Part shown: in pieces, positions 8,435 through 54,407 of the stretch
How the letters are laid out: the number at the start of each line of letters is the position of its first letter
How positions within the stretch are numbered: the stretch's first letter is position 1
IMG/VR virus record: IMGVR_UViG_3300042535_000010
Span: 1 to 54,718 of that record
DNA from: a virus
Taxonomy: Duplodnaviria; Caudoviricetes
Direction: 5' to 3' (one strand)
Length of the DNA: 54,718 nucleotides
Notes under the pieces: model-generated
Database searches by the model: none
What the model saw: only the letters and a program-made list of their open reading frames with translations
Told to the model about the DNA's origin: nothing
Made by a program: the position numbers and the translations under genes

Positions 8435-9857
8435 GCCTCGACCTGACACAGCGTCAGTCCACTGCTTAGTATCCGGATCGGGCTCACCACTAGCCAGCCG
8501 TGGCCGTTGACCAGGTACGCGCGCGCGTCCTCGTGTGTGCCGCACGCAGCTAGGGCGTGCATGCGCGTCAGCGCGATGTAGACGAACGACATGGTAATAG
8601 CTCGGGATACATGAGAGTGAACGCGTCCTCGTCTGTGTGATCGAAGTAGGCCTCGATCTCGCCATCGGCCCAGGCGGCCCATAAGACACGACATGGTGGT
8701 AGGACATCAGCCCAGCTTCTCCAGCCATCGTAGGGTCGGCCACCGATGTTTTGCACGTACATCTCGAACGCTTCTTTTCCGGTCATGGTTTAGTCCTAAC
8801 ACGAGATTCGGGGGTGCAGCAAGGACACTCCCGCGTACATGCGACCAGAAGCCAGCCTAAGGGCAGGCCAAAGAGAGCCCACGCCTCTGGCGCGCCGAGT
8901 AGACAGCCCAAGAACGCGGCAGGGCAGGCGAGCAGACACAAGAGCCCGATCAGGCCCATGCGCCCGTTTGACAAGTATCCGACAAGTAGGCAAACGCCTG
9001 CCATTATCATGGTGTCGCCTCGTGCAGTGCCTTGAGGTATCGCTGCACTAGCGCGTCGAATACCTCATCCGAGATCTCGCGCAGACCCGCGCGGTACGCG
9101 GCCTCGTGATACTGAATCAGTTCGCGCATTGCCTCTAAGGATTCCGCAGGCTTACGCCGTGGTTGTTTCATGGCTTGAGCCTCCATCGGGTCTTGACCCA
9201 GGGCCCAGGATGATCCTTCTCCCAGCCCGGGAATGGGGTGGTCCATCGTTCGTAGAGCGTGCTCCAGAACTGGACCGCGATCCCCTGCGCGACCAGGCTC
9301 CGGGCCTGGGTCACGCTGAAGCCGATCGCCATCGTCGGGATCGTGTCCCGGACGTAGTTCTTGCAGTCACGCGCGCCTCGGCAGGCAAAGCCCGTGAACA
9401 AGGGCTCGCCCTCGCCGCCGCAGAGTGGACACTTCATACGGCCCCGCACATTCTGGCCAGCGCCAAGACAAGGAGCACGAACACCAGCGCGCCGAGCGTG
9501 AAGTCAAACGAGGTCATACTGCCCCCTGCAGAGTCTCGACCATGGCCTTGAGCTCGGCCTCGGCGGCGCGCTTGGCAGCCGCCGCAGTCGTGTAGCCCAT
9601 CGAGAGCCAGACCGTGGTACCGCGCACCTGCGCGTACGCGACCCAGAGCGTGCTCGACCCCTGCGGGTGCACACGGGCTGCATCCCCTAGCAGCCACCAC
9701 TGTCCGGCTCGTTTCCATTTCTTGCTTAGCATCTCGACACCGCCTGCTTGTGGTTCTCGGCCAGCTCGCGCCGCCATCCCGCGCCGTGGCGGCGGATCAC
9801 GATCTCTCGCCACGCGGCGAGCGCGGCGACCAGGAGACAGGTCTCAGAATAGGTCAT
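8431..9857 (-). other. Minus-strand chain of small overlapping accessory ORFs (incl. 8568-8786, membrane ORF 8783-9010, ligase-N-like ORF ending 9007, CxxC ORF ending 9168)
   Basis: Successive stop/start overlaps downstream of the pentapeptide gene; starts uncertain. Confidence 0.6.
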
Positions 9858-10537
9858 CGGTATTCCTCCGCCTCGACGCGGGTCATAAAGAAATGTATGC
9901 CATGCGTACACTCGACCCTGATGTCGTCGTCGAACTTGTCCGCGGTCACCACAGATCCCACCGCACTATAGTCCAGTTCACCCTTCGTAGGTGACTTACC
10001 ACCCGCATCCATCACAATCACGTGGCTCGCGCGGCACTTACGCCCGACAAGCGAGCTTGTGCGGACTGCGTCTGCGGGGACCTGCACCCGGATAACACCT
10101 GTCGTGGTTTTCTTCCACGCCACGAACTCGCCCTCGCTCGGCACGATCTGAAAGTGCGGCAACTTCGCTCCAGTGAGGTTCGCGCCGCTGAGGTTCGCGC
10201 CGCTGGGGTTCGCGCCGCTGAGGTTCGCGCCGCTGAGGTTCGCGCCGCTGAGGTCCGCGCTGCGGAGGTTCGCGCTGCGGAGGTTCGCGCTGCGGAGGTC
10301 CGCGCCGCTGAGGCTCGCGCCGCTGAGGCTCGCGCCGCTGAGGCTCGCGCTGCGGAGGTCCGCGCTGCGGAGGTCCGCGCTGCGGAGGTCCGCGCTGCGG
10401 AGGTCCGCGCCGCTGAGGTCCGCGCTGCGGAGGGCCGCGCCGCTGAGGGCCGCGCCGATGAGGGCCGCGCCGCGGAGGTTTTCGGTCGGGATCGTGAGAA
10501 GTACAACACCCTGGTGATTTCTGATTTCGACAGGCAT
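9854..10537 (-). CDS. Pentapeptide repeat protein with DUF5758-like C-terminal domain
   Basis: About 20 A(D/N/S/A)L(S/R)(G/S) repeats, then GEFVAWKK...GRKCRAS...[18 protein letters not shown]. Confidence 0.9.
10174..10478. repeat. 15-bp tandem repeats encoding pentapeptides
   Basis: GAGGTTCGCGCCGCT / GAGGTCCGCGCTGCG units. Confidence 0.95.
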
Positions 10538-10590: not shown

Positions 10591-10905
10591 ATGCTCGTGA
10601 TCCCCACACCGGAGCTGACCGACTACCAGGACCTGTACGAGGTCGAGGCCAGGCTCGGGAGCAATGACTACCTCCTGCGCCTGGCCTGGGACGGCTCTCG
10701 CTGGTTCATTGACGTGCTCCTTAGCGACACGCTGGAGCCCCTGACCGAGGGCGCGCCCCTGACCCTGTGGCGTCCCGTGCTGGTCTACTGCACGCACGCC
10801 AGCCGCCCTGCGGGCGAGATCATGCTCATCTCCTCGACCGAGGACACGACCGAGGCTCAGCGCGCCGACCTAGGCGCACGCTGTGTGCTGGTGTATGTTG
10901 CCTGA
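10591..10905 (+). CDS. Baseplate plug-type small protein
   Basis: YEVEARLG..DYLLRLAW...WFIDV...DLG..CVLVYV; precedes hub; TGC-TATACT-N7-ATG. Confidence 0.7.
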   Translation: MLVIPTPELTDYQDLYEVEARLGSNDYLLRLAWDGSRWFIDVLLSDTLEPLTEGAPLTLWRPVLVYCTHASRPAGEIMLISSTEDTTEAQRADLGARCVLVYVA

Positions 10906-11707
10906 GCGCTCTATCTCACTCCACATCGGGGGCCTGATCGCGAACGAGCTCGACTGCACGTTCTCGGTCCAGGCCGACCTGTCGGATAAGCCCAACGTCG
11001 CGAGCATCCAGGTGTTTGGCGCGAGCGAGGCCACGCGCGCGGCATGGAGCGCGAGCGCGGCCGGGGTCGAGGTCCGGCTGCAGGCCGGGTACCGGGGCCA
11101 GAAGCTGGCCGATATCTTTCGCGGAAAGCTGCGTGATATCAATCACAAGCACGAGCACGCGGAGTGGGTCACGACCATCAGCTCTGGTGATGGCGACGAG
11201 GCGAGCGCCACGGTGGCCTTCAATCTGAGCCAGGGGTCGAGCATCCAGGCCGCAGTCGCGCGCGTCGCGCGAGACCTGAACCTGGCCACCAAGGACAACA
11301 AGACCCTGGCCGGGATCACGCTCGCGAATGGGGCCGCGCTGTTCGGTAAGTCCATGTCCGAGCTCGGGCGCATCACCGCTCAGTACGGCATGCGCCCGAC
11401 CATCCAGAGCGGCGAGCTGGTGGTCGTGCAGGACGGCAAGGCGCTGCCGGGTCGCTTCGTGGACGTCACGACCGGGCTCGTGGGCGCGCCCGAGGTCACG
11501 ACCACGGCTGTGAGCGTGAAGGGCCAGCCCCAGAAAAAGAAGCAGCGCCAGCTCAAGATCACGCACCTCATGACCGCCGACATCCGGCCAGGTTACCTGC
11601 TTGAGGTCGGGACCGAAGGCAGGTGGCTCGTCAAGCAGGTGACCTGGAGCGGGAGCACGTTCGGGAATGACTGGTATGTCACGGCCCTCTGCGTGCCCCC
11701 GGTCTAG
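10895..11707 (+). CDS. Baseplate hub protein
   Basis: PNVASIQVF...LQAGY...IFRG...SGDG; TGLVGAP; GSTFGNDWY. Confidence 0.85.
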   Translation: MLPERSISLHIGGLIANELDCTFSVQADLSDKPNVASIQVFGASEATRAAWSASAAGVEVRLQAGYRGQKLADIFRGKLRDINHKHEHAEWVTTISSGDGDEASATVAFNLSQGSSIQAAVARVARDLNLATKDNKTLAGITLANGAALFGKSMSELGRITAQYGMRPTIQSGELVVVQDGKALPGRFVDVTTGLVGAPEVTTTAVSVKGQPQKKKQRQLKITHLMTADIRPGYLLEVGTEGRWLVKQVTWSGSTFGNDWYVTALCVPPV

Positions 11708-13818: not shown

Positions 13819-14511
13819 CTATACCTTACACACCTGGTAGAGGGTGTCAACTTTCGTGACCTCGGACGTGCCCGAGACCGCGATCCTGCGCGGTATCTCT
13901 AGCACGACCCTGTGTGGTGTAGGGCACGAGAACTCGGAGACATACACGGCGGTGTACTGCGCCCACTCCTGGCAGCGAGCCCAGAAAGACGCATGGTCGA
14001 AGTCTCCGGTGCTGTAGCCTGTGGTCCCCGCGTACGGAGGATCGCAGTAGATGATCCCGTTTATCGGTCCGGGTGTGACATCGAAGAACGAGAGCCTCAC
14101 GATAGGCCAGGAGGCGAGGGCGGCGAGTTGTCGTTGTAGCGCGCGCTTGGTGTATATGTGCTCTAGCTTGCCGGGGTTGTGCTTTGCGTACCCCCCGAAG
14201 TACATACCCCCGAACGAGCACCCGAACCCGGCAAAGCCCTTCATCGGATCCGAGTCCGGCAGCATTTTTGCCTCTCGCCACATGGCCTCGGTCACGTGCT
14301 CTGGCGGGGTCCAGCCTGCCCGAACGGCCTGGTAGAGGGCGATCAAGGCCGGGTGTACGTCGCTGGCGACACCAGGACCGGTCTTGGAAAACTCAGTTGC
14401 CATCGAGAGGCCGCCGCAAAACGCGTCCCAGACCGGGACGTTGCCGACATCGGCTCGAATCGCCTTGACCAGATGTTTCGCCAGCCTGTGTTTCCCGCCC
14501 AGATACTGCAT
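13819..14511 (-). CDS. D12-class N6-adenine DNA methyltransferase, copy 1
   Basis: MQYLGGK, DAFCGG, IYCDPPY, VYVSE motifs. Confidence 0.9.
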   Translation of the reverse strand: MQYLGGKHRLAKHLVKAIRADVGNVPVWDAFCGGLSMATEFSKTGPGVASDVHPALIALYQAVRAGWTPPEHVTEAMWREAKMLPDSDPMKGFAGFGCSFGGMYFGGYAKHNPGKLEHIYTKRALQRQLAALASWPIVRLSFFDVTPGPINGIIYCDPPYAGTTGYSTGDFDHASFWARCQEWAQYTAVYVSEFSCPTPHRVVLEIPRRIAVSGTSEVTKVDTLYQVCKV

Positions 14512-15228: not shown

Positions 15229-15450
15229 ATGCTTGCTCAACTCCCGAAGCTGCCCCCGTGGGCGCACATGCTCCTGCTCGCAGTCTCGGGCGCGCTGAGC
15301 GCCGTGGCTGTGTCTCTGCCCGATCCCTGGAAGGGGATTGTGGGCGGTCTCGGCACCACGGGCTTGACCGTGGCCGGACTGCTGAACCGTAAGGAGGGAG
15401 CGCCTAATGCCGACGCTAACGGACCTGGCCCTACCTCTGCAGGTCAGTAA
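15229..15450 (+). CDS. Small two-TM protein, possible holin
   Basis: Two hydrophobic segments and polar tail; TGG-TATACT-N6-ATG. Confidence 0.5.
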   Translation: MLAQLPKLPPWAHMLLLAVSGALSAVAVSLPDPWKGIVGGLGTTGLTVAGLLNRKEGAPNADANGPGPTSAGQ

Positions 15451-15856
15451 CGGCCAGCTCGTGTTCCGGGTCGACGGCAACGCCGTAGCCCAGCGCATAG
15501 CCAACCGCGTGCTGACGTTCCGGAACGAGTGGTTTCTAGACGCGAACACAGGTACGCCATACTACGAGCAGATCCTAGGCGCGGTCCCGGACGAGCAAGC
15601 GGCTGCGTCCGTGTTCCGCGCTGTGGTCCAGGCAGACCCCGCGGTGTTGGCGGTGCCTGTCTGCGTCGTGACCTACTCGCTCGCGACCCGCCTGTTCTCG
15701 GTCAGGATCGAGGCCACGATCTCGCTCCCGGGAGACGGCACGGCCGGGGATACCGGCTCGGTCTTGATCACGGTCGGCGGCCTACCTGACGGCGCGATCG
15801 TGATCGATGGTCTGGCGCTGGTCGTGGGTGGGGTCCCGGTCGTGGTGTCACTCTGA
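15407..15856 (+). CDS. Baseplate wedge / sheath initiator (gp25-like)
   Basis: AVAQRIANRVLTFRNEWFLDANTGTPYYEQILG; AAGGAGG upstream. Confidence 0.85.
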   Translation: MPTLTDLALPLQVSNGQLVFRVDGNAVAQRIANRVLTFRNEWFLDANTGTPYYEQILGAVPDEQAAASVFRAVVQADPAVLAVPVCVVTYSLATRLFSVRIEATISLPGDGTAGDTGSVLITVGGLPDGAIVIDGLALVVGGVPVVVSL

Positions 15857-16171: not shown

Positions 16172-16265
16172 CTGAGTTACTCCTTGTTCGCTGACAAAGA
16201 ACAGTCTGGCGTTGAAGGGTCCGGCTCGCAAGCCGGCTGCGTCGATTCATGCTATCCTACCCGAC

Positions 16266-17444
16266 ATGGGTCTATCACCTACCGGCTTCAGCGTCCGCAC
16301 CCTACAGGAGATCCGAGACAGCCTGGCCGCGGATGCCCGCGCGCGCATTGACCCGACCCTGGACGTGAGCGACAACGCGGCATTCGGCAGGCTGCTTGGG
16401 ATCTGGTCGGAGCGTATCCTGGCGCTGGAGCAGAGCTTGCGCGACGTGTGGCAGAGCTACCGGGTCGAAGGTGCGACCGGGGTGAGCCTCCGCTCGCTCG
16501 GCGCGCTGACCGGCACCCTGCCCGAGGCCGCGAGCTACAGCTCGGTCACCCTTTCATTCACGCTGCAGGCTGGAGTCACGGTCGCGGCTTTGAGCGAGTT
16601 CCGCGTGCCGGGCGACACGGTCACGGTATGGGCGACGCAAGCGACCGTAACCAATAGCGGGGGCTCGCCCCTGGTCGTGACCGTGGCAGCGCTTGCGAAC
16701 GCGACCGGCCCGAAGGCGGCTGCAGCCGGGACCATCACGGAGTTCCTCAGCCCAGTCATTGGCGCTGTCGTGACCAATCCCGCGGATGCAGTGCTAGGCG
16801 CGAATGAAGAGACTGACGCTGAGTTCCGACTTCGCCGCGAGATCGAGCTCCGGGACCAGGGCTCGGCTGCGCTCGAGGCGATCATCTCGGCCGTGTCGAA
16901 GGTCACAGCTGTCGTGACAGTGTCTGGCCGCGAGAACGAGACCGACTCCACGGTGGACAGCTTGCCCGCGCACCATTTCGAGATCGTGATCTGGGACGGC
17001 GGAGGTAGCGCGGACGATGATGCTGTTGCTCAGGCGATCTGGGACAACAAAGCGGCCGGCGTCGGGAGCTACGGCAGCGCGAGTGGTACGGCCGTCAACA
17101 CGCTCGGTCAGGACAAGACCGTGTCGTTCACGCGCGCGAGCGCGCTGCTCGTTTACGCCGCGGTCCAGGTCTCGATCGACACCTCGACATGGACAGACTC
17201 GGGCGCAGCCATCACCGCGATCAAGCAGGCCCTGGTCGACTACGCGGACGGCACCTGGACCATTGGCGACGACATCGCGCGCGCCGCTCTCTACGCGCCG
17301 ATCTTCGCCCTGGGTGGAATCAAGAACGTGACCCAGCTCTCAATCGGCACGAGCGCGAGCCCTAGCGGCACGGCCGATCTCGCTGTCGCGATCACGCAGT
17401 ATCCCCAGCTCGCGACTGCGCGCATCGGAGTGACGATCGTATGA
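16266..17444 (+). CDS. Baseplate J-like protein
   Basis: MGLSPTGF; ATGVSLRSLG; GANEETDAEFRLRR; KAAGV; TGC-TATCCT-N7-ATG. Confidence 0.92.
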   Translation: MGLSPTGFSVRTLQEIRDSLAADARARIDPTLDVSDNAAFGRLLGIWSERILALEQSLRDVWQSYRVEGATGVSLRSLGALTGTLPEAASYSSVTLSFTLQAGVTVAALSEFRVPGDTVTVWATQATVTNSGGSPLVVTVAALANATGPKAAAAGTITEFLSPVIGAVVTNPADAVLGANEETDAEFRLRREIELRDQGSAALEAIISAVSKVTAVVTVSGRENETDSTVDSLPAHHFEIVIWDGGGSADDDAVAQAIWDNKAAGVGSYGSASGTAVNTLGQDKTVSFTRASALLVYAAVQVSIDTSTWTDSGAAITAIKQALVDYADGTWTIGDDIARAALYAPIFALGGIKNVTQLSIGTSASPSGTADLAVAITQYPQLATARIGVTIV

Positions 17445-18004
17445 GCACGCATGAGGACCTGGCCGTCGCTCGGCTGCCTGAGCATATGCGGGGCGACGAC
17501 AAGCTGGACGCGCTCGTGCGCGTGCTCGCCGCGCCGATGGATGGACTCCAGGCTGAGTGCACGCTCGTGTCCGAGGCGTACCGGATCGAGACCGCGCTCG
17601 GGGCCCAGCTCGACGCGATCGGCGAATGGGTCGGGCTCACGCGCGAGGGTCGGCCGGACGAGGACTATCGCCTGTGGCTGCAGGCTCAGCTACTAGTGCT
17701 GCGCACGGCAGGCCGGGCACAAGACCTGGAGACGATCCTGACCCTGGTCGCGGGCACGGCAGAGCTGGAGCTGCTCGACTTCGTGGGCTATGTCCAGTTC
17801 TCGGCCGCGCCGCTCCTGCGCGCCGAGCAGGTCTACGCGATCTTGCACCGGGCCAAGGCCGCAGGCGTGCGCATCGGCCTGGTCTACAGCGAGTACGAGG
17901 ACTTGATCTTGTTCGGAACCCCTGCCGAGTATGCATACGACGCCACTGTAGGTATCGGGGACACAGGCACGGTTGGCGGGCGCCTCGCCAGTGTGCTAGC
18001 GTGA
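17441..18004 (+). CDS. Baseplate wedge protein (DUF2612 / gpI-like)
   Basis: ALGAQLDAIGEWVGLTR..DEDYRLWL; AKAAGV; coupled to gpJ. Confidence 0.85.
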   Translation: MSTHEDLAVARLPEHMRGDDKLDALVRVLAAPMDGLQAECTLVSEAYRIETALGAQLDAIGEWVGLTREGRPDEDYRLWLQAQLLVLRTAGRAQDLETILTLVAGTAELELLDFVGYVQFSAAPLLRAEQVYAILHRAKAAGVRIGLVYSEYEDLILFGTPAEYAYDATVGIGDTGTVGGRLASVLA

Positions 18005-18007
18005 AGC

Positions 18008-18385
18008 ATGGAAAAAGCTAACGTTGTCACGTGGCTGCTCAAGCACAATCGGATCGTGGGTCTGAACCTGAACGCGACCGTGCCTGGGGTCGTGCTGCCT
18101 GTGGACCTCATGACACACGAGCAGGTGGTTCTAGAAATAGGTCTCGACCTTCCAAAACCGATCCACGACCTGTGGATAGACGGCAACGGAATCGCGGGCA
18201 CGCTCTCCTTTGACCGCCCGGTGCATTGCTTGATCCCGTGGGCCGCGTTGCGCGCCGCGTGGGGGAAAGACGGCAGAGGTACGGTCTGGGACGACGTCCC
18301 AGGCCCGAAGCAGTCCGCCGTCGCGGTCCTGGACGGCGGCGCGGAAACGACACCGCCGAAGCGCGGGCACCTGCGATTGTGCTAG
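18008..18385 (+). CDS. sspB: SspB-like ClpXP adaptor, copy 1
   Basis: PGVVLP...VLEIGLDLPKPIHDL...GTLSF...IPWAAL...GRGTVWDDVP; C-terminal HLRLC resembles ClpX-binding LRVVK tail. Confidence 0.8.
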   Translation: MEKANVVTWLLKHNRIVGLNLNATVPGVVLPVDLMTHEQVVLEIGLDLPKPIHDLWIDGNGIAGTLSFDRPVHCLIPWAALRAAWGKDGRGTVWDDVPGPKQSAVAVLDGGAETTPPKRGHLRLC

Positions 18386-18394
18386 ACTAGGCAC

Positions 18395-19465
18395 ATGGCA
18401 CGACCTGTCGACTATCCAGACTTCGCCACCTCAGGCACCCGCACAGCACCGCCAGGCCCCGTCACATCCGCGGGCTGGACCCCAGGTAACCGCCTGCCTG
18501 CCGTGTGGATGAACTACCTACAAGGCCTCTGCGGCGACTGGATCCGGCAGCTCGTGCTCGAGTCCGACGGCTCAGCCCGGCTCGCCCCTACGACGCAGAA
18601 CGCGTTCACAGTCTCGGATCCAGACTACGCCCCGATCGACGTCGCGACTGAACCGGGCGCGAACTTATGGCAGTGTGTGCTCAAGATGCACACAGGGCTA
18701 ATCTCAGCCGGCAACAACTGCGACGTCCGGGTGTATGTAGGTAATGGGAGCGAGGGCTACGTCGCGATCGTCGTCAACACCCTGTTTCATCACCCAAGCG
18801 CCAAGTGGCGCAACATGAACACGACGCTGGACTCGCGCGCGTTGTTCATCGGCCCGGGTGGTGTGTCGTTCAAGTTCAAGGCCGCCGCTTCGGCGGCCTG
18901 GACAACCTGGACCGACTACACGAACCTAGATGTAGGTCAGATCACGGCGACCGGGTTCATCGCCGCTACGGGGAATATCACGTCAGGCGGCAACGTCACC
19001 GCCAGCGGATACATGTCCGCGGACTACTACCAGACCCCGAACACGACATTGACCGCGCCAATCCGCCTGGCGAGCGCCCAAGGCAACGTGTCTCGCGTGG
19101 GCGCTACGGGCGCGATCAAGCCTGCGTCTGGAACAGCGGTGATCTACTGGCCTTTCCAGCGCCCCCTCAACTCGACATGGGGCGACATCGTGATCGTGCT
19201 GAACCAGGCGACATCGACCCCGGGCCAGTTTGAACTCATGCGCCGAGACGCGGACGGAGGCGCGGGCGGCGCCCCCGCCGTGGCGATCGACTTCACCGTC
19301 GGGACCGGGACCGGGACCGGGCGCAAGGTTGTGACCCTGGCGACGTCGGGGGGCGAGTATGTCTCGAGCGAGGATTACGAGCTCGTGTGGACCCCGGGTG
19401 CTACCGCAGACGAGGTCGAGCAGATCCAGATGAGCTGGACCGACAGAGGACCGCGAAACGACTAG
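18395..19465 (+). CDS. Tail fibre protein
   Basis: MARP..PDFAT...GWTPG.RLPAVWMNYL N-terminus; follows baseplate; TGC-TAGACT-N6-ATG. Confidence 0.8.
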   Translation: MARPVDYPDFATSGTRTAPPGPVTSAGWTPGNRLPAVWMNYLQGLCGDWIRQLVLESDGSARLAPTTQNAFTVSDPDYAPIDVATEPGANLWQCVLKMHTGLISAGNNCDVRVYVGNGSEGYVAIVVNTLFHHPSAKWRNMNTTLDSRALFIGPGGVSFKFKAAASAAWTTWTDYTNLDVGQITATGFIAATGNITSGGNVTASGYMSADYYQTPNTTLTAPIRLASAQGNVSRVGATGAIKPASGTAVIYWPFQRPLNSTWGDIVIVLNQATSTPGQFELMRRDADGGAGGAPAVAIDFTVGTGTGTGRKVVTLATSGGEYVSSEDYELVWTPGATADEVEQIQMSWTDRGPRND

Positions 19466-22913: not shown

Positions 22914-23444
22914 TTACTTGGCGGCCTCGAAGAACTTGTGTGTGAAGTACGCACCGTTGTCGCTGCGTTTCGCCGTGCACTTGACCACGAAGCGTGCGCC
23001 GTCGTACTTGCCCGCGAGCAGGCCCTGGTACACCTGCTGGCAGAGCGCCTCGGCTTGGGCCTCGCGATCGAGGTCGGCCTGCGTGGGCACGTCCGGGTTC
23101 GCGCGAGTGGTAGTGAACACCGGGTGCTCGCTCGCACCTGGCATGAGCGCGACGCAGAGCGCGCGCATGTTGCGGAGAGCGCGGTAGCCTCCGCACTTAG
23201 TCACGTCTGAGTTGTCCCACAAGTTGAAGCCTGTGATCCGGATGCGGTGGATCTTGTTCTCGGTGGGAAAGTCTACAGGCTTGATCTCTACTTTAAGAGT
23301 CCAGCCCGCGTCTTTGCCTTTGTGTCCGGTGACCTTGTACTGCTCGGCCTTGCCGCAGATCACGACCGTGCCCTCGCCCGAGGGCAGGTCCGGGCGTTCG
23401 ACCGGACCTTGCACGTTACCCATGTTCACGTTTTGATTATTCAT
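22914..23444 (-). CDS. Probable ssDNA-binding protein
   Basis: Position after nuclease/helicase; beta-rich OB-like pattern; weak. Confidence 0.45.
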   Translation of the reverse strand: MNNQNVNMGNVQGPVERPDLPSGEGTVVICGKAEQYKVTGHKGKDAGWTLKVEIKPVDFPTENKIHRIRITGFNLWDNSDVTKCGGYRALRNMRALCVALMPGASEHPVFTTTRANPDVPTQADLDREAQAEALCQQVYQGLLAGKYDGARFVVKCTAKRSDNGAYFTHKFFEAAK

Positions 23445-25162
23445 CTGATTAGATCCTCGATTTCAGAGACGTCACCACTCCAGTCAGCATACGCTAGTTT
23501 TTTCGGCACGCAAGTCCGACGCTGCGATCCGTAGCTATCGGTAATCGCCTGGCGCAGCGTGTGCAGCTTCGCAGGTGTGTAATAAGGAATCACACAGCGC
23601 ACATCGTGCTTCTGCCCGGGCCGGTGAATGCGCCCGAGCATCTGCTCTACCTTGTCGCCAACGCTGTGCATGCCCAGGCAATACATGCGGTCGAACCAGT
23701 GCTGTAGGTTCAGACCGACCGAGCACGTATCCATAGAGGCGATGCAGGAGCCTCGGTGCTGCTCGATGTTGTTACCCTGGGCGTCGTTACCTTTCTGCCA
23801 AAAGAACGGCAGGCCGGTCAACCTCGCGAGCTCGCGGCCTGTATGTGGGAAGTCGACCCAGCACACGCCCCGGCCCTCGGACTCGTCCCGGAGCCAGGCG
23901 GCAGCATCTTCGAGCGCCGTGCGGTCTACCCAGCGCGCGACCGTGTTCGGGCGAAAGCGCTTGTCCCACTCATCCCACAGCTCGAACAGCCCGTAGTAGG
24001 GTGAGCCTTCGCGTTGCAGCGCTAACTTGACCAGCTCCTCGGACTCGAGCCCGGGGATCTCCCGGCCGATGATATCGGACACCACGATGGCCCAGGCCCT
24101 GCGCGCCTCGCGGTACGCCTCGGGGGCCGGCGGGTCCCACACATAATACCATCCGGTCTCGAGCTGCACGTCGCGCTGATACACCTCGATATCGGACGTG
24201 AGCACATAGCCGTCCGGAGTCTCGCGATAGACCTTGTCGTCTTCTGTGCGCCGCTTCTTATGCATGTGCTCTAGCGCTGCGGCCACGGACAGGGGCGTCG
24301 GGTATTGCCGAACCTCGACCGAGAACCCCATTTCGGGCCTGGTCCCGATCGATGCCACGACCCCGGGCGTGTGCACGAACCGCTGGCCATACGCCTCTTG
24401 CGCGGCCTCGAGATCATCCAGGTCCGAGGGCACGACCCACAGCCCGCGCAGGGGCGAGGGGTCGATTCGCTTGTACTCCGGGATCTTATCCCCTAGCGCG
24501 CCGTGCCACGCGAGCGCCTGGAACAGGTCCAGGGGCATAGGTGAGTGCTCACGCAGGCTGTAGCTGATCATGTGCCAGTAGCTCATAGGCGAGCGCGAGC
24601 CCAGGCTTGCGGACAAGCAGAAGAGCAGCGGGCGGGCGTCGCTCATGAAGTAGCGCAGCTTCTTCCAGGCGGTGTTGCCACTGTCCTGCAGCTCCTGGCA
24701 CTCGTCCAGGATCACCAGGTCGGGGTTGATCTCGGCCAGCGCCGCAGCGCCGTGCTTGCGCTGGAGCTTCTCGTACGAGAGGATCGCGGGCTTGATCAGC
24801 TTCCAGCTCTTGCTATCGGTCTCGAAGTCGCGCTCTGTCTTCTCGAGGATGGAGCCACCGGGCACCACGAGCAGCGGGCGCACGCGGCCCTTGCGCCTGA
24901 ACAGCGTGGCGAGCATGAATGAGAGCAGGGTCTTACCTCCACCTGGGAGGATCGGCGCGATCAGCCCGTCCATGTTCCAGGCATCGACCAGCGCCGCGGC
25001 CTGGACGTCGCGCAGCATTGCGCCCGGCTCCTTGCGGTACTCGGCCGAGATCTGCTCGGCGACGGCGCGGATGCGCGTGTCGGTCTGCCAGGCTCTCGCC
25101 GGCAGGGCGCGGACTCGCTGAAAGTCTAGCGAGTCCGCGCGTACTACTGCGGGCGTGAGCAT
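23441..25162 (-). CDS. Superfamily 2 helicase
   Basis: PGGGKT Walker A, ILDECQ, GLNLQ, QMLGRIHRPGQ. Confidence 0.9.
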   Translation of the reverse strand: MLTPAVVRADSLDFQRVRALPARAWQTDTRIRAVAEQISAEYRKEPGAMLRDVQAAALVDAWNMDGLIAPILPGGGKTLLSFMLATLFRRKGRVRPLLVVPGGSILEKTERDFETDSKSWKLIKPAILSYEKLQRKHGAAALAEINPDLVILDECQELQDSGNTAWKKLRYFMSDARPLLFCLSASLGSRSPMSYWHMISYSLREHSPMPLDLFQALAWHGALGDKIPEYKRIDPSPLRGLWVVPSDLDDLEAAQEAYGQRFVHTPGVVASIGTRPEMGFSVEVRQYPTPLSVAAALEHMHKKRRTEDDKVYRETPDGYVLTSDIEVYQRDVQLETGWYYVWDPPAPEAYREARRAWAIVVSDIIGREIPGLESEELVKLALQREGSPYYGLFELWDEWDKRFRPNTVARWVDRTALEDAAAWLRDESEGRGVCWVDFPHTGRELARLTGLPFFWQKGNDAQGNNIEQHRGSCIASMDTCSVGLNLQHWFDRMYCLGMHSVGDKVEQMLGRIHRPGQKHDVRCVIPYYTPAKLHTLRQAITDSYGSQRRTCVPKKLAYADWSGDVSEIEDLIR

Positions 25163-26262
25163 CAGCCGAACGAGACCTTGCCGCCAGCCTTGAGGATGCA
25201 GCGGACCGAGCGACCAAGCTCGGCGTCGAGCAAGTCCTGGCCCAAGGGCGAGTGCTCGGTGTTCATCATCTTGCTGCGTGTCTCGAAGTCCTCAGGCAGC
25301 ACCTTCGCCTTGGTTTGATCGGCGGCGAGGGCAGCCGTGAACGCAGGCTCCGGCAACGTCGGGATCTTGACAGGCTCGGTCACGACCGTGGCCGGGCTCT
25401 CGAGCACAGGGAGTTGCGCGACCTGCGCAACGGCAGGGGTCGAGGCAACAGCCGGGCCGCCGAGCAGGTTGACGGTAGCGGGCGCGGTCACAGCTGCGGG
25501 GTTCTTGAACTGGGCCATCATCGCGAGCAAATCGGGCTGACTCATGATCTCATTCCTCCGGTCACAATATTGTCGAACATCACAGGCACCATACTCGTAA
25601 CACAGGTTCTTGTTCGTGTCCAGCTGACGGGGGTCATCTGCATTCACGATCCGGAGTGCCTTACGCGCGCGGTTGTACAGCTGCGGGCGCCGCGTCTCGA
25701 GCTCCACGCGTGTGAACGTGGCCGTGATTGGCTCCGGAGCGCCGTGCGCGATCCGGTCGTAGGGCGCAGCATCGGCCGACTTCTTTGTCCTGAGATAGAG
25801 CCAGGTGCAGGTCACGCCCTGCTTCTCGGGGTGGCGATCGAGCGCGTCCAGGCAGTATGCCTGTACCTGGGGGTCGGTTAGCATCGCATCCCGGTGCTGC
25901 AGCTTCGGCTTCTGCGTCGACGTCTTGTAGTCGATCACGACCAGCTCCGGGTCTGTCAGCCGGTGATCGTACTTGCCCGAGATCTCGAAGCCGGGTGCGA
26001 ATGGGATCTTGACCCAGCCCTCAGCTGTGCCCTCTCCGGGTTTCGGCAGGTAGGGCATGGCGAGCATGAGCGCAGCCTTGAGCGCGGGGTGCTCGGGCAC
26101 CGTACCGTGGCGTGTCCACTGCTCGAACGCGTCGTGTACCGCGTTGCCAAACTGGCGCCCTCCTGCGTCCTTGTCCTCACCTTTCGGTAGGTGATACACG
26201 AGCCAGCCCCGAACGGGGCACTCGCACTTACTCATCATGCTCGGGCTGGCGCGCTTGAACAT
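25162..26262 (-). CDS. PD-(D/E)XK (RecB/Cas4-like) exonuclease
   Basis: FGNAVHDAFE, GKYD, IDYKT, QVQAY, Cys cluster; TGC-TAGCCT-N6-ATG. Confidence 0.88.
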   Translation of the reverse strand: MFKRASPSMMSKCECPVRGWLVYHLPKGEDKDAGGRQFGNAVHDAFEQWTRHGTVPEHPALKAALMLAMPYLPKPGEGTAEGWVKIPFAPGFEISGKYDHRLTDPELVVIDYKTSTQKPKLQHRDAMLTDPQVQAYCLDALDRHPEKQGVTCTWLYLRTKKSADAAPYDRIAHGAPEPITATFTRVELETRRPQLYNRARKALRIVNADDPRQLDTNKNLCYEYGACDVRQYCDRRNEIMSQPDLLAMMAQFKNPAAVTAPATVNLLGGPAVASTPAVAQVAQLPVLESPATVVTEPVKIPTLPEPAFTAALAADQTKAKVLPEDFETRSKMMNTEHSPLGQDLLDAELGRSVRCILKAGGKVSFG

Positions 26263-26393
26263 GCCGCTAGGCTAGCACGCCTGACGCTTTACACAACACA
26301 ACACGTTTTACACTAGGGGTCGGAGCTTATGGGAAACCGATCGAGGGAGGGTCATAGTATCACCCTCCATTCAGATCCATTCCCCATGCGCGT

Positions 26394-26460
26394 GACCTAT
26401 GTGTATTTAGAGTAAAGCCCGTATATGTGCTTTACGAATCAAGGGGCTACACGTTCCGGC
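26394..26460. repeat. AT-rich conserved 67-bp element, copy 2 (candidate origin)
   Basis: 55/67 match to 2318-2384; lies between divergent replication operons. Confidence 0.85.
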
Positions 26461-26524
26461 CGCAGCATCTGGATGTGTGCGACCTGTATTTGCGCCGGAC
26501 CCCCAGGTGCGCTACAGTCCCCGC

Positions 26525-29041
26525 ATGAGCTATGCTGCGTTCCTTCGCGAGTACCCTCACCGGATTGCGCTTCGCGAAATAGGTAACGGATTCAAGGGCA
26601 AGGAGCCGATCGCGAACGGCTGGCAGACCTCGACCTTGACCGAGGACGACGTCCCGGGCCGGTACGGGATCCCGTGTGGGCGCCCGCTGCGCGACGGCTA
26701 CCTGGTCGTGATCGACGTCGACAGCGCGCCAGACCTCGCGATCCTAGAGCAGCGCTACGGCAAGCTGCCCACCACGCTCTCGGTCGCGACCGGGCAGGGC
26801 ACACACCTGTACTTCATCTCGCGCCGCCCCTGCGGCAACAGCACGCCCTGGGACAAGACCATCGCTGTGGATGTGCGCGGGCTTGGCGGCCAGGTCGTAG
26901 GAGCGGGCCAGCAGCACCACAGTGGGGCGCACTACAACGCGAACACGGCTGAGATCGCGTACCTGCCCGAGACCTGGCCCCTGCTCCCGCCCGGCGCGCA
27001 GCGCGAGCGCGGAGCCGTCTCGGCTCTGCCTGTGTCCCCTACGCTCGGCCAGATCAAGATGGCGGCCAGGCTCCTGGCCCCGTCTCAGGCCGCGTGGTTC
27101 GTCGCGCTCGCGTCCGGGCAGGTCATGCCCGGGTTCGAGAAGGGTAAGAAGACGCACGCGACCATGCTGTCGCTCGCGCTCGCGATGGTGGACGTCTGGG
27201 GCCCAGGTCTAGACCTGGAGCCGCTCGAGGACATGCTCTCGGTGAGCTGGCCCTCATACCTGAAGAACCGCGCGGACTTCGCGCGCGCCCTCGCAGGCGC
27301 CGCGGCCTCGTTCCAGGGGCAGCCGCTGCTCGCCGGGCCTATGCCGAAGGTCGAGCTCGCGCCCGCCGCACAGGAGCGAGAGCTGCCCTCTGGATCTGAC
27401 CTGCGCTCGCGAGCGGTCCAGAAAGGCACGCCTAAGGATCGCGCGCTCGTGATCCAGGCCATCGCAAGTGGCCGGCAGGTGGACCCGGGCGAGGCAGCCT
27501 ACGTGCTCCTGTGGGCGTTCCCCGGGCTCGCGCCGGACCAGGCGCAGCAGCTATGCCCAGCCATCGAACTCAGCCACTGCGCAGCCGCTACGCTGCGCCT
27601 GTCCGAGGAGAGCGCCGCGGCGCACCTGGCCGCGACCGAGGCTGAGGAAGCGAAGACGCTCAAGGCCGCGGAGAAGCGAGCGAAAGAGGCCGCGAAGAAA
27701 CAAGCGGCTGAGTCTGCCGCCGCGCGCGCGGCGAAGTTCACGGCCGAGGGCCTGGACCTGCGCCTGGACTCGAAGGGGCGCCCCGTCGACGGCATGGGCA
27801 ACATTGCCAAGATCCTGCGCGCGCGCGTACAGGTTCAGGTTCACGTGCGCGGGCGAGACGCGACCATAGGCTGGGACGGCGAGGCTGCGGAACACATCGG
27901 GCCGACGCACATCGCCGAGCAGATCGACCTCGCGTATGAGATGCCAGTGCGCCCGGGCGTGATCAAGGGCTGGCTTGAGGAAGCGGTGCTGAACACCGCC
28001 AACGAATATGACCCGATCGTGGGCTACCTGCAGGCCGCGAAGTGGGACGGGCGCGCGCGCCTGGACTCGTGGCTTGACGCGTTCGTGGCCCAGCCCACGA
28101 GCTACACGAGAGCCGTGGGCCGGTATCTGATCCTGGCCGCTGTCGCGCGCACGGTCGCACCTGGCTGCCACTTGGGCTACACGCCCGTGCTCATCGGCGA
28201 CGAGGGCACGGGCAAGTCCGGCATGCTGAACGCACTCTGCGCCGGCCTGGACGGGACCCGGTTTGGGCAGCGCAGCCGATTCGCAGGCCAGCCCACGAAC
28301 GGTATGGAGGGCAAGGATCTGATCCTCGCCCGGCACAAGGCCCTGATCTACGAGGACGCAGAGGCGGTGAACCACAGCCAGCGCGAGGCTGAGCAGTCGC
28401 GCGCGGACTTGAGCGCGGAAACGGACCTGGTCCGGCCCCCGTACGCGGCTCGTGCGCTGCTCATCCCGCGTCGGTTCGTGACTGTGATCACGACCAACCA
28501 TAAGCAAATACACGGAGATCGCGAGGGCCGGCGCTATGCCCCGGTGCACCTCAAGCGCTACCTGCTGGCGAACGGCAACCCAGACATCAAGCGCCGCTCG
28601 CGCGAGGTGGGCTCGATGCTGGAACAGCTGCACTCGGAGGCGACCCAGATCTGGGCCGAGGCCGTGGCCGTGTTCGCGGTCGAGGGCCTGCGCGCGCTCG
28701 AGTGTCTGCGTGCTGGCGAGGTCGCGGACCAGCTCGCAGCTGAGCAGAGCGACGCGCGCGAGTCCGGCGAGGAAGACATCGTGGCCGAGAACATCGAGCG
28801 CGCGCTCACGCAGGCGACCGAGGGCAAGGGCCTGCCGCTTGCGGACACCGCAAGCGCGGACCGATACGGGCGCGGGCAGGTGGTGAGCCTGACAGCGCTG
28901 GCCGAGGTCGCGCTAGGAATGAGCAAGGCCGACGCGATGCGAGCCGCGCGCAAGATAGGCAAGGTCATGTCTCGGCTTGGCTGGAGACGTGTGCACACAG
29001 GCACAGCCCGCGTTTGGCTTGCGCCGGGGGTCAAGGCGTGA
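26525..29041 (+). CDS. Bifunctional primase-polymerase fused to VirE/VapE-type helicase
   Basis: VVIDVD, TGQGTHLYF, DVRGLGGQVV; WDGRARLD, GDEGTGKS, RPPY, TTN; TTGCGC-N17-TACAGT-N6-ATG. Confidence 0.9.
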   Translation: MSYAAFLREYPHRIALREIGNGFKGKEPIANGWQTSTLTEDDVPGRYGIPCGRPLRDGYLVVIDVDSAPDLAILEQRYGKLPTTLSVATGQGTHLYFISRRPCGNSTPWDKTIAVDVRGLGGQVVGAGQQHHSGAHYNANTAEIAYLPETWPLLPPGAQRERGAVSALPVSPTLGQIKMAARLLAPSQAAWFVALASGQVMPGFEKGKKTHATMLSLALAMVDVWGPGLDLEPLEDMLSVSWPSYLKNRADFARALAGAAASFQGQPLLAGPMPKVELAPAAQERELPSGSDLRSRAVQKGTPKDRALVIQAIASGRQVDPGEAAYVLLWAFPGLAPDQAQQLCPAIELSHCAAATLRLSEESAAAHLAATEAEEAKTLKAAEKRAKEAAKKQAAESAAARAAKFTAEGLDLRLDSKGRPVDGMGNIAKILRARVQVQVHVRGRDATIGWDGEAAEHIGPTHIAEQIDLAYEMPVRPGVIKGWLEEAVLNTANEYDPIVGYLQAAKWDGRARLDSWLDAFVAQPTSYTRAVGRYLILAAVARTVAPGCHLGYTPVLIGDEGTGKSGMLNALCAGLDGTRFGQRSRFAGQPTNGMEGKDLILARHKALIYEDAEAVNHSQREAEQSRADLSAETDLVRPPYAARALLIPRRFVTVITTNHKQIHGDREGRRYAPVHLKRYLLANGNPDIKRRSREVGSMLEQLHSEATQIWAEAVAVFAVEGLRALECLRAGEVADQLAAEQSDARESGEEDIVAENIERALTQATEGKGLPLADTASADRYGRGQVVSLTALAEVALGMSKADAMRAARKIGKVMSRLGWRRVHTGTARVWLAPGVKA

Positions 29042-29056
29042 CAGGGTTCTCCCTGT

Positions 29057-31848: not shown

Positions 31849-31854
31849 AGGGAT

Positions 31855-41436: not shown

Positions 41437-41613
41437 ATGGACAGCAGCAGACTAGGGTTCTACTTCCGCGACATCGAGGAAGGGGACGCACAGCCCAGCA
41501 CGAACGAGTGCCCCAAGTGCGGCGACATGCGCCAGGACCCGCGAGAGCCCTACTGCTGCGGGCGCCGCTGCGGATGGATGCCTCGCAAGCGCCGTGAGCG
41601 TGATGAGGATTGA
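41437..41613 (+). CDS. 58-aa zinc-ribbon protein leading the TerL unit
   Basis: Hand-translated MDSSRLGFY..CPKCG..CCGRRC; TGC-TAGACC-N6-ATG. Confidence 0.55.
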   Translation: MDSSRLGFYFRDIEEGDAQPSTNECPKCGDMRQDPREPYCCGRRCGWMPRKRRERDED

Positions 41614-52243: not shown

Positions 52244-53005
52244 ATGGCCGGCTACAAACGACGCCCCCCGCGACTCGACCGCAAGGCTCGGTTCCCCCGC
52301 CGCCCCAAGCTCGAGTCGTCAGAGTGCGCCGTGGGGTACATCCGCGTCTCGACTGACGAGCAGGCCCTCGGCCCCGAGGCCCAGAAGACAGAAATCCTGA
52401 CCTGGTCGGCCGAGAACGACATCCCGATCGCGGCCTGGCACGAGGACCTGGGTGTATCGGGGCGGTCCCCCATGGACCAGCGACCGGCGCTCATGGACGC
52501 CCTGGAGAGCGTCCACAAGAATCACGCGCGGTTCTTGATCGTGGCGGCCCGTGACCGCCTCTCGCGCGACGTGTCCGTGGGGGCCATGCTTGAGTACGAG
52601 TTTTCGCGTAACAAGTGCCGTATTCTGACCGTCCGCGAGGACACCTCCGACGAGACACCCGAGAGTCTGATGATGCGCCGCATGCTGGACGTCATGTCCG
52701 AGTATGAGGTGTCCCTTATTCGCCGCCGCACGAAGGCGGCAATGGCCGCCGCGAAGGCGAACGGAAAACAAGTCGGCCGCCCGGGGATGCTGTCCAGCCA
52801 GTTCGGGCGCGAGATGGTAGCTTTGGTGCATGACCTCTCTGCGGCGGGGTTCCACTCGGCACGGATCTGTAGGTTCATGAACTGGAAGTACGGACGGAGC
52901 CTCTACGGCACTTCTTGGGGGCCGCAGCTCGTGAAGCGCTGCCTCGGGATGCCGCGGCCGCCGGAGTTTCTGGAATTCGCAATAGACAAGGATTGGGAAC
53001 CATGA
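52244..53005 (+). CDS. Small serine recombinase (resolvase/invertase family)
   Basis: GYIRVSTDEQ, DLGVSG, RPAL, DRLSRD, GKQVGRP. Confidence 0.92.
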   Translation: MAGYKRRPPRLDRKARFPRRPKLESSECAVGYIRVSTDEQALGPEAQKTEILTWSAENDIPIAAWHEDLGVSGRSPMDQRPALMDALESVHKNHARFLIVAARDRLSRDVSVGAMLEYEFSRNKCRILTVREDTSDETPESLMMRRMLDVMSEYEVSLIRRRTKAAMAAAKANGKQVGRPGMLSSQFGREMVALVHDLSAAGFHSARICRFMNWKYGRSLYGTSWGPQLVKRCLGMPRPPEFLEFAIDKDWEP

Positions 53006-53320: not shown

Positions 53321-53566
53321 ATGTACCTAGCGATAAGCGTAGCCGCCGTCAGTCTGGCTGTCTGGGACATGTTTCGTCGTTGGGTGGCCTACGACCGCGC
53401 CAACGTGTCCGCCCTGTCAGAAAAACTGACACACCTGGTCGAGTCCAATCGCTTGCAAAAGGCCGCGCTCGAGAACTTTCTCAAGCAAATGGCGGAACTC
53501 GTGTCGTTCACGCAGGAGCGCAAGCGCGAGCTGGAACTTCGCCTGGCGGGAAAGAAGTTGCCGTGA
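53321..53566 (+). CDS. Membrane-anchored coiled-coil protein
   Basis: N-terminal hydrophobic helix then heptads. Confidence 0.6.
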   Translation: MYLAISVAAVSLAVWDMFRRWVAYDRANVSALSEKLTHLVESNRLQKAALENFLKQMAELVSFTQERKRELELRLAGKKLP

Positions 53567-54042
53567 CCGGAAGACCTCCGACCTGCGTTCAGACGGCGCT
53601 CGGTCTGTTCATAGACCGCAGCGGCGGAGAACTGTCCTGCTGGCCCTGGACGCAGACAACATTCCGTAATGGTTACGGACGGCTGTCCGTTCGCGGGCGC
53701 TCTCTATTAGCGCATCGCGTTACGTACGAGTTTTACATCGGCGCGATTCCGCACGGGCTCTCTCTTCTACACAGCTGCGACAATCCGATTTGCTGCAATC
53801 CGGCTCACTTACGTCCCGGTACTCCAGCTGACAACATGCAAGATAAAGTCAACCGCGGACGCGCACTCGGCGCGCATCGCGGGAGCCAGCACCACAACGC
53901 GGTGCTCACCGAGACAGACGTAGTCGAAATGCGCAAACTACACGAAGCTGGAGTTACGCAGCGTGCCATTGCCTTGCAATTCGGCGTCAGTTTCAGGCGG
54001 GTCAACAGCGTTGTGCTTCGACGCACCTGGAAGCACGTATGA
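53563..54042 (+). CDS. HNH endonuclease
   Basis: CWPW, GYG, AHRVTY, HSCDNPICCNPAHLRPGT..N. Confidence 0.92.
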   Translation: MTGRPPTCVQTALGLFIDRSGGELSCWPWTQTTFRNGYGRLSVRGRSLLAHRVTYEFYIGAIPHGLSLLHSCDNPICCNPAHLRPGTPADNMQDKVNRGRALGAHRGSQHHNAVLTETDVVEMRKLHEAGVTQRAIALQFGVSFRRVNSVVLRRTWKHV

Positions 54043-54407
54043 CCCAAATCCTCAGCAAGCTAGAGACAGCCAGATGGATCCTGTCCGCGGACGACCTGTT
54101 CGTCAGCCTGGATCCCCGCGGCGCGGACGTCACGGTCCCGCCCTGGCTCAAGCACCAGCCCGAACTGTGTCTGCAGTTCGGGCTGAACCTGCCAATTCAC
54201 ATCCCTGACATGCATTTGGACGAGACCGGCATCTACGGCACGCTGAGTTTTCAGCGGACGCCGTACACCTGCGCCATCCCATGGAAGGCCGTGTTCAAGA
54301 TGCACACGGGTCAGGGCTTGGGGTTCGCCTGGGGCCTGCCCGAAGAACCCATCAAGACGAAGACGCTCAAGAACGGTTGGAAACTCATAGTTGGTGGTAA
54401 GAAATGA
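54039..54407 (+). CDS. sspB: SspB-like ClpXP adaptor, copy 2
   Basis: LDPRGADVTVPPWLKHQPELCLQFGLNLPIHIPDM..GTLSFQRTPYTCAIPWKAVF. Confidence 0.85.
   Translation: MTQILSKLETARWILSADDLFVSLDPRGADVTVPPWLKHQPELCLQFGLNLPIHIPDMHLDETGIYGTLSFQRTPYTCAIPWKAVFKMHTGQGLGFAWGLPEEPIKTKTLKNGWKLIVGGKK

Follow-up and report, generated by a model that had tools for sequence, protein, structure and literature searches.

Bacterial SspB binds the ssrA tag with its native domain and the ClpX N-domain with its disordered C-terminus, and this tethering is described as lowering the Michaelis constant (KM) and raising the maximal rate (Vmax) (PMC9963277). According to the same source, high conservation in SspB is confined to the dimer interface and the groove that binds ssrA. 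The XB peptide alone has been reported to recruit ClpXP and to cause degradation when GFP or a bait peptide carries it as a fusion (PMC12373786). Among phages, the SspB-like gp18 of Pseudomonas phage pf16 was presented in 2017 on the basis of modelling alone, as the first of its kind according to the authors (PMC5587285). An adaptor-like protein for another Clp protease, Gp53 of phage SPO1, was shown experimentally to work with ClpC (PMC6873191). In this study, we analysed a window of 54,718 bp, which is the entire IMG/VR virus record IMGVR_UViG_3300042535_000010 (linear, estimated 100% complete), and its two SspB-like open reading frames (ORFs), ORF1 and ORF2. We cautiously favour, on sequence comparison and structure models, the reading that both are captured, tail-shortened SspB adaptors of the Polyangia type, which would dock on the ClpX of the host and, on balance, deliver clients to it rather than block their delivery. 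The two ORFs and their parts are as follows.

18008..18385 including the stop codon, plus strand: ORF1, SspB-like, 125 amino acids (aa), ending ..KRGHLRLC
18008..18298, plus strand: substrate-binding domain of ORF1, residues 1-97, an N-terminal helix and a beta core in the AlphaFold2 (AF2) model
18320..18340, plus strand: internal tail motif VAVLDGG of ORF1, residues 105-111, which matches the internal motif of a host subclade
18359..18382, plus strand: C-terminal ClpX-binding-like motif KRGHLRLC of ORF1, residues 118-125, from clade invariance and alignment with hosts
54039..54407 including the stop codon, plus strand: ORF2, SspB-like, 122 aa, ending ..WKLIVGGKK
54360..54404, plus strand: tail KTLKNGWKLIVGGKK of ORF2, residues 108-122, from clade and host alignment
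54375-54392, plus strand: ClpX-binding-like core GWKLIV of ORF2, inside that tail

A preliminary description of this DNA had placed SspB-like ORFs at these two positions, and both were found on the plus strand with the tails and motifs it quoted, namely LEIGLDLPKPIHD and GRGTVWDDVP in ORF1 and LQFGLNLPIHIPD in ORF2. The two proteins are paralogues (BLASTP, 34% identity over 95 aa, E 2e-14), and a search of the whole record found exactly these two copies. Each protein retains the SspB substrate-binding domain, with its N-terminal helix and beta core, together with a short C-terminal peptide of the form L-R/K-V/L-V/I; the peptide of this type in E. coli SspB binds to the zinc-binding N-domain of ClpX. 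In the mechanism that we propose, ORF1 and ORF2 would tether themselves and any clients bound in the groove to host ClpXP, and the tethering would retune which proteins are degraded during infection. ORF1 would be expressed along with the late baseplate and fibre genes, and ORF2 from an accessory cassette that follows an HNH endonuclease gene. ClpX binding, dimerisation, the choice of clients and the net effect, whether delivery or competition with host SspB, are all inferred from the sequences. A phage-encoded ClpP-like or ClpX-like partner was ruled out, since CLP_protease (PF00574) and the ClpX zinc finger (PF06689) had 0 matches anywhere in the record. Any Clp-related action of ORF1 and ORF2 must therefore go through the host enzyme, and we believe that they probably act on host ClpXP.

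The SspB identity of the two proteins, which is weak in single-sequence tests, became firm with family profiles and predicted structures. In a phmmer search of the PDB, ORF1 matched E. coli SspB (1ox8) with an E value of 0.0065, and ORF2 matched nothing meaningful. In an index of 5.8 billion proteins, the close relatives of ORF1 and ORF2 numbered three (84, 42 and 41% identity) and three (93, 59 and 57% identity), respectively. A profile made from ORF1, its three relatives and ORF2 (A1, 5 sequences) was searched against 1.84 billion representatives and matched 3180 proteins at E<=1e-3, of which 1509 reached E<=1e-10. A second alignment (A2, 68 rows) combined ORF1, ORF2 and P0002-P0004 with 63 of the other 147 listed A1 matches, which were taken partly from its highest ranks and partly from the short matches and are not a random sample. 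The Pfam SspB family PF04386 was matched at E<=0.01 by 65 of these 68 rows (best 4.1e-13), with ORF1 among the three exceptions; in a scan of the whole record, PF04386 matched ORF2 only, at 19.8 bits. The A2 profile matched full-length E. coli SspB (8et3_Y) with an E value of 3.8e-6 over profile positions 14-155 and chain residues 19-165, and it matched 1yfn, 1ox8 and 1ox9 at about 6e-4. In the alignment with 8et3_Y, the C-terminal consensus of the family lies on the E. coli ending ..RPALRVVK.

The AF2 models of ORF1 and ORF2 had a mean predicted local distance difference test (pLDDT) of 84.2 and 84.9, respectively. In both models the domain is confident (91-97 in 10-residue blocks over residues 1-90 of ORF1) and the tail has low values, as expected of a disordered segment. 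Both have a predicted N-terminal helix (residues 3-14 of ORF1 and 7-17 of ORF2), which in ORF1 is followed by predicted strands at residues 16-21, 40-45, 61-67, 71-77, 81-86 and 91-93. When the ORF1 model was searched against the PDB with Foldseek, ranks 1-17 were all SspB, from E. coli, H. influenzae, Agrobacterium and Caulobacter (E 4.5e-5 to 1.2e-3, 15 of them at E<=0.001), and the next listed match had an E value of 0.58. The ORF2 model had 19 matches at E<=0.001, and all those listed were SspB (9.6e-6 to 1.7e-4), with the next at 0.26. For both models, a gap of three to four orders of magnitude in E value thus lies behind the SspB structures. As a lead only, the nearest clusters in the ESM Atlas are proteins of 121-139 aa, mostly viral, with PF04386 on 17-47% of their members. 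From profile and predicted fold we conclude that ORF1 and ORF2 belong to the SspB superfamily, with scores below the curated thresholds.

Three family members from the same searches (P0045, P0119 and P0131) carry the SspB-like domain fused to one or two ClpX-type zinc fingers in place of the tail. Domain fusions of this kind usually mark interacting partners. These fusions are evidence on the family, not on ORF1 and ORF2 themselves. Ten further proteins (P0154-P0163, 269-364 aa) have the ClpX zinc finger as their only Pfam domain. By regular expression, P0154, P0155, P0156, P0159 and P0163 contain two or three tandem CxxC...CxxC units and no AAA+ module, and P0154-P0163 outscore true ClpX against the N-domain of Sandaracinus ClpX. 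They could be N-domain decoys or adaptor sinks.

The preliminary description had also likened the two proteins to SspB of Polyangia-type myxobacteria, and the cellular homologues agreed with it. One genome from each of 185,579 species was scanned with patterns from ORF1 and five top matches (A3), which gave 508 pattern matches and 275 confirmed relatives, and the best 80 of the 275 were examined. Their labels were Polyangia-level for 46 loci (Polyangiaceae, Polyangiales, Sandaracinus/Sandaracinaceae, Labilithrix and Byssovorax), Myxococcota or Myxococcales for 21, delta-proteobacterium for 10, 'uncultured bacterium' for 2 and 'Proteobacteria bacterium' for 1; among these best 80 of 275, no other phylum was named more specifically. 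Their identity to ORF1 was 37-49%. The A3 patterns come from this subfamily itself and could not have picked up other taxa whose motifs differ. In the unbiased list, the top 147 representatives had a median best identity of 53% to the host proteins, with 49 of them below 50%, so the full family range is wider than the taxa that can be named here. The best host match of ORF1 was L004, from a metagenome-assembled genome (MAG) of Sandaracinus sp. (45.8% over 118 aa), and that of ORF2 was L064 (48.5% over 103 aa). Three Polyangia genomes carry 1, 1 and 2 SspB-like copies, as expected for a chromosomal sspB. The candidate transfer-messenger RNA (tmRNA) tags of these three genomes, ANDNAIALAA, ANDNALALAA and ANDNAYALAA, are close to the E. 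coli tag as quoted in PMC9963277.

We believe that ORF1 and ORF2 were probably captured from myxobacterial (Polyangia) hosts. That the host of this phage belongs to Polyangia, perhaps to a Sandaracinus-like lineage, seems fairly probable to us, with the ORF1 and ORF2 genes as the sole host clue. To our knowledge, few phages have been described for Polyangia. The large terminase has <=39.7% identity to any cultured phage (best, Rhizobium phages), and the major head protein found matches, none above 32% identity, in 8 of the 401 Myxococcota genomes that were sampled (E<=1e-10); these two proteins neither support nor contradict a Polyangia host. A tblastn search of ORF1 and ORF2 against 50,697 cultured-phage records gave no match at E<=0.01. 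Scans of viral contigs with the ORF2 clade (A5) and with the host-like patterns (A3) gave no confirmed relative, and a scan with A1 gave one (L003). Two observations concern the host loci themselves. In a Myxococcales MAG (G003:C1:183897-184985; L086, L135), the sspB-like and tmRNA genes are divergent and 217 bp apart, and in Labilithrix luteola they lie about 18 kb apart. The tags and the close gene pair link the family to ssrA.

For the comparison of tails, 80 host ORFs were extracted, of which 78 were complete and some had approximate starts. The complete host proteins are 150-397 aa long (median about 216). Read by eye, 77 of the 78 end in L/M-R/K-V/L/I-V/I-K and the other one in LRLVE; most have ..LPPYLRVVK and a small group has ..RGHLRLVK. 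The end of ORF1, ..PPKRGHLRLC, aligned with the host ending ..RGHLRLVK. Within the ORF1 clade (A6, four sequences, 41-84% identical overall), 33 columns are invariant in the whole protein and 12 of them lie in the last 16 residues (G110, G111 and T115-L124), and the tail is thus the best-conserved part of the clade. The tail of ORF2 aligned with the host ending ..KLPPYLRVVK and with ..LGWRVVK of P0077, and the pattern K.L.[KN]GW..-GG.K is found in three of the four members of its clade (ORF2, P0152 and P0153), the fourth (P0041) ending in GEKK. By alignment, therefore, both C-terminal tails resemble the ClpX-binding motif of the cellular family, as the preliminary description had supposed, and on this resemblance they may bind ClpX.

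ORF1 also shares a second motif with some hosts. An internal LR[VL][VL][DE]G[GT] motif, directly behind the domain, occurs in exactly the hosts ending in HLRLV[K/E] (L004, L005, L012, L021 and L073) plus L082, which ends in PPYLRVVK, and these six form one starred clade in the first tree. VAVLDGG at residues 105-111 of ORF1 corresponds to this motif. The two-motif layout common to ORF1 and the subclade ties ORF1 to the Sandaracinus-like subclade. The gap between the internal and terminal motifs is about 40 residues in the subclade hosts and six in ORF1. The paired motifs of the subclade suggest, from their sequences, two ClpX-contact sites per tail.

Several results weigh against the reading of captured, delivering adaptors. 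In single-sequence tests, PF04386 matched ORF2 with an E value of 6.9e-4 and 20.1 bits (cut-off 27) and did not match ORF1 at E<=1, and the NCBIfam ClpXP specificity-enhancing factor matched ORF1 with an E value of 3.1e-4 and 20.8 bits (cut-off 202) and did not match ORF2. ORF1 has NAT in place of the DPR that is invariant in all 78 hosts. Its end, LRLC, is without the final V-K of 77 of the 78 hosts, and the ORF2 motif has W for L and four residues (GGKK) beyond the motif. The tails are also short. Tail length was measured from the conserved C..PW anchor to the C-terminus in 73 hosts, five without the anchor in the regular expression being excluded; it is 47 residues in ORF1 and 40 in ORF2, and 76-315 (median 131) in the hosts. 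In eight other phage or metagenome forms it is 40-66 residues, so that every phage-borne form measured is shorter than all 73 host forms measured. The spacer from domain to motif is about 10-15 residues in ORF1 and ORF2, and both lack a long flexible linker, of about 40 residues or more, joining the domain to the docking peptide. With so short a spacer, the delivery geometry may not be preserved; the shorter tails could also merely reflect the compactness of phage genes.

The very short tethers and the non-canonical ends leave room for the opposite outcome, in which the N-domain is occupied or clients are sequestered without delivery. ORF1 and ORF2 would then be competitive anti-adaptors that keep the docking peptide and the groove, with a tether that does not reach far enough to bring a client to the pore. 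By occupying ClpX N-domains, sequestering clients, or both, they would block the degradation that depends on host SspB and on the N-domain, which could, for example, protect phage proteins. We regard this outcome as a real rival, though the less probable one. The short tails of all the phage and metagenome forms measured fit it, and free XB peptide is reported (Wah et al. 2003) to prevent SspB-mediated delivery. On the other hand, the ClpX N-domain is itself flexibly tethered, so that short adaptor tethers may still deliver, and short phage genes are common for neutral reasons. The authors of the pf16 study, whose phage SspB is described as having no acidic disordered region, proposed competitive inhibition (PMC5587285). 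A blocker, however, needs the tail only, yet the core of both proteins is largely conserved: of the 34 columns conserved in >=90% of the 78 hosts, ORF1 retains 28 and ORF2 26, and ORF2 retains DPR and differs at other host-conserved positions. Because the whole domain is conserved and not just the tail, we rank delivery above competition, which is not a strong call. A complex prediction for two copies of ClpX N-domain residues 1-60 with ORF1 residues 88-125 scored 0.18 and 0.21; these values are below threshold and came without controls, and they were counted neither way.

ORF1 had been assigned to a baseplate unit, and its neighbours bear this out.

16212..17444, plus strand: baseplate wedge gpJ-like gene, upstream of ORF1 (phrog_6, E 3.5e-44)
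17441..18004, plus strand: baseplate gpI-like gene (phrog_1160, E 9.7e-13)
18395..19465, plus strand: 356-aa ORF without a PHROG match, a putative tail fibre gene by position only

ORF1 lies 3 bases from the end of the gpI-like gene in front of it and 9 bases from the 356-aa ORF behind it. Promoter and terminator scans around ORF1 and ORF2 gave nothing exceeding shuffled expectation, and neither gap, on the gpI-like side of ORF1 or on the side of the putative fibre gene, contained a promoter-like or plus-strand terminator-like site. With this tight spacing and no such site, the simplest reading is that ORF1 belongs to the late structural transcript. In IMG/VR, 29 relatives of the gpJ-like protein (31-40% identity) were found, and an SspB-like ORF was found at 0 of these 29 related baseplate loci, when the A2 hidden Markov model (HMM) was searched at E<=1 up to 5 kb on each side. 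As a positive control, the same procedure recovered both window ORFs (E 1.2e-36 and 1.5e-43). In L104 and L129, the following long ORF begins within the gpI-like gene, with nothing intervening, and the two complete related phages behind these loci have no SspB-like gene anywhere in the genome (0 of 2). ORF1 is therefore a lineage-specific insertion at the junction of baseplate and fibre genes. No PHROG family matched ORF1 or ORF2 at E<=1. ORF1 as a conserved baseplate or fibre component was ruled out by the 29 loci and by the gene order of L104 and L129.

Its position could nevertheless mean that ORF1 has a role in tail morphogenesis unrelated to ClpX, as a chaperone of fibre or baseplate assembly or as a minor virion protein. 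The spacing of 3 and 9 bases in one apparent transcript speaks for such a role, and so does one homologue (P0003, in L094), which adjoins a fibre-like ORF. This ORF, at 1659-2147 on the minus strand of a 2.1-kb contig, has collagen-like G-x-y repeats (GTPGPQGSEGPPGMAGP). Collagen-like G-x-y repeats occur in some phage fibres. We consider a role in morphogenesis unlikely, because all 29 related baseplate loci do without such a gene, the gpI-like gene of L104 and L129 abuts the next long ORF, and the part of the ORF1 clade that is best conserved is the ClpX-binding-like tail and not the domain. In addition, the homologues in L003, an unrelated 107.7-kb phage with one SspB-like gene, and in L095 end in ..RLRLVK and ..RLKLVKG, respectively, and sit amid non-structural genes. 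ORF1 as a captured adaptor made with the late genes remains the reading that we prefer.

ORF2 lies, as had been described, in an accessory region, where it follows a serine recombinase gene and an HNH endonuclease gene.

52244..53005, plus strand: serine recombinase (resolvase), accessory region (PF00239, E 1.5e-31)
53380..54042, plus strand: HNH endonuclease directly upstream of ORF2, true start uncertain (PF13392 HNH_3, E 7.6e-9)

The start codon of ORF2 and the HNH stop codon overlap as ATGA. The G+C content is 59.1% in ORF2 and 56.9% in the bases downstream, compared with 64.5% in the genome, and the end of the record (the last ~700 bases) is a lower-GC stretch. ORF2 may travel within a homing-endonuclease cassette. 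Two tiny ORFs with hydrophobic stretches directly follow ORF2, at 54404-54550 (48 aa) and 54552-54704 (50 aa); the 48-aa ORF, the one of the two that was scanned, had no Pfam match. This myovirus looks lytic apart from its serine recombinase, which could be either an integrase or an invertase of the fibre genes.

A comparison with bacterial SspB by HMM and phylogeny had been proposed. The profile places both proteins in the SspB superfamily, as shown above, and the domain trees, built by a quick method from 88 and 83 rows with about 104-130 columns, are poorly resolved. The ORF2 clade is solid, with Shimodaira-Hasegawa-like approximate likelihood ratio test (SH-aLRT) values of 99-100, and in the first tree it stands next to small host SspBs (SH-aLRT 84). 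ORF1 and P0002 are on a long, unplaced branch, and ORF1 and ORF2 are not sisters in the free trees. In the approximately unbiased (AU) test, a tree with a joint ORF1 and ORF2 clade was not rejected (p 0.806, the constrained likelihood being higher), and long branches are involved. The second tree and the AU test omit the five hosts without the regular-expression anchor (L035, L053, L064, L082 and L083), including L064, the best BLAST match of ORF2. The distinct tail types and the distinct nearest host subclades may point to two captures rather than one.

The long branches of both ORFs could also be read in another way, namely that ORF1 and ORF2 are functionless passengers, recently captured and decaying fragments of host genes. 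Their scores below the family thresholds and the lower G+C content around ORF2 would agree with this. Their reading frames, however, are intact, their core positions are conserved, relatives with 41-93% identity on other contigs have the same tail motifs, and the G+C content at third codon positions (GC3) is 0.78-0.80 in ORF1 and ORF2, which is typical for the coding frames of this phage. We therefore think decay very improbable, and working adaptors remain our preferred reading of both genes. The preliminary description had interpreted the pair as late and early adaptors, or as an active and a dominant-negative form, that redirect proteolysis toward defence or developmental regulators. Of that interpretation, the fold, the tail resemblance and the Polyangia likeness stood, and for the idea of timing only the placement of ORF1 in the late structural operon was obtained.

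The rest of the record was scanned with PHROG and Pfam over 40 of its longer ORFs. It has a G+C content of 64.5%, and no tRNA or tmRNA gene was found in its 54,718 bp. Among the sequencing runs listed for the record there is no RNA run; one DNA run, from a sediment metagenome, may be the sample it came from, and three runs with a small share are not used here. The matches indicate a contractile-tailed phage with the following genes.

2882-4378: tape measure
10883-11707: baseplate hub
15407-15856, 16212-17444 and 17441-18004: baseplate wedge proteins
23441-32883: helicase/primase, DNA polymerase and exonucleases
35323-36369: prohead protease
36931-37926: major head protein
39657-40955: tail sheath
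41594-43003: large terminase
43504-45102: portal

Within the tail module, a minus-strand ORF at 9854-10537 matched several PHROGs of unknown function, among them phrog_7713 in three repeated stretches (E 2.8e-33). Two DNA methyltransferase-like genes are present at 13819-14511 (minus strand) and 49577-50086 (plus strand), and the matches are phrog_56 (E 3.2e-19) and Dam PF05869 (E 2.2e-5, below the cut-off).

ClpXP adaptors set which proteins a bacterium destroys, and a phage version could rewrite this choice with about 120 residues. ORF1 and ORF2 are a test pair for this, as diverged copies with different tails, both far shorter than the measured host forms. If they work, they would reveal how tether length and tail sequence tune delivery versus inhibition, and they would be natural templates for the targeted degradation of proteins in bacteria, as the engineered XB-peptide degraders are. 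We also considered a wider speculation, which as a whole we find doubtful. Short-tethered SspB proteins might be a recurrent phage invention, in which a host adaptor is captured, its linker deleted and its groove retuned, giving natural targeted-degradation devices in phages of myxobacteria and, to judge from the Atlas clusters, in many uncultured viruses. In the present phage, the two copies would then be non-redundant and of different host-subclade ancestry, with one co-expressed with the tail genes, and they would send defence or stress regulators to host ClpXP or shield phage proteins from it.

Compared with known systems, ORF1 and ORF2 share with SspB of E. coli and H. influenzae (1ox8, 1ou8 and 8et3; PF04386) the fold (Foldseek target-normalised template modelling score 0.60-0.75, root-mean-square deviation 2.2-3.0 A, about 90-104 columns) and the plan of a domain, a disordered tail and a terminal hydrophobic-basic motif. 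They differ from these proteins in an identity of only 15-26% and in scores below the curated thresholds, and from E. coli SspB in tails about 30-37 residues shorter and in altered ends (LRLC; WKLIV followed by GGKK). The SspB-alpha proteins of Caulobacter and Agrobacterium (2qas, 2qaz and 2nys) have the same fold, are lower in the Foldseek lists and are more distant by E value than the gamma-proteobacterial structures. Their tail motif is different as well. With the chromosomal SspB of Polyangia (for example, L004 of Sandaracinus sp. and L019 of Labilithrix luteola), the two proteins share the PIPDL / GTLSF / C..PW core, and ORF1 resembles one Polyangia subclade in pairing an internal LRVV(D/E)GG-type motif with a terminal RGHLRLVK-type motif. 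Unlike the Polyangia proteins of 150-397 aa, with their long and often charged linkers, the phage forms have 122-125 aa.

Among phage proteins, gp18 of Pseudomonas phage pf16 (PMC5587285) and gp039 of Erwinia phage RAY (PMC10299810) are likewise phage-encoded, SspB-like and annotated as ClpXP adaptors, and gp18 is also reported without an acidic disordered region (PMC5587285). Unlike ORF1 and ORF2, they are described from other phage groups with Pseudomonadota hosts, as a single copy each. SPO1 Gp53 is a precedent for a phage protein that binds a host Clp unfoldase and modulates Clp for phage development (PMC6873191). Its fold is unrelated, it partners ClpC instead of ClpX, and it does not descend from a host adaptor; the likeness is one of analogy only. 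The literature searched yielded no study of the function of a phage SspB and no work on SspB of myxobacteria or their phages. Since SspB homologues of phages are already in print (PMC5587285, PMC10299810), the novelty of the present pair is lowered. What is new here is the presence of two diverged copies in one phage, one of them inserted in a late baseplate operon, together with a tail that is shortened in all the phage-borne forms found, and the affinity to Polyangia.

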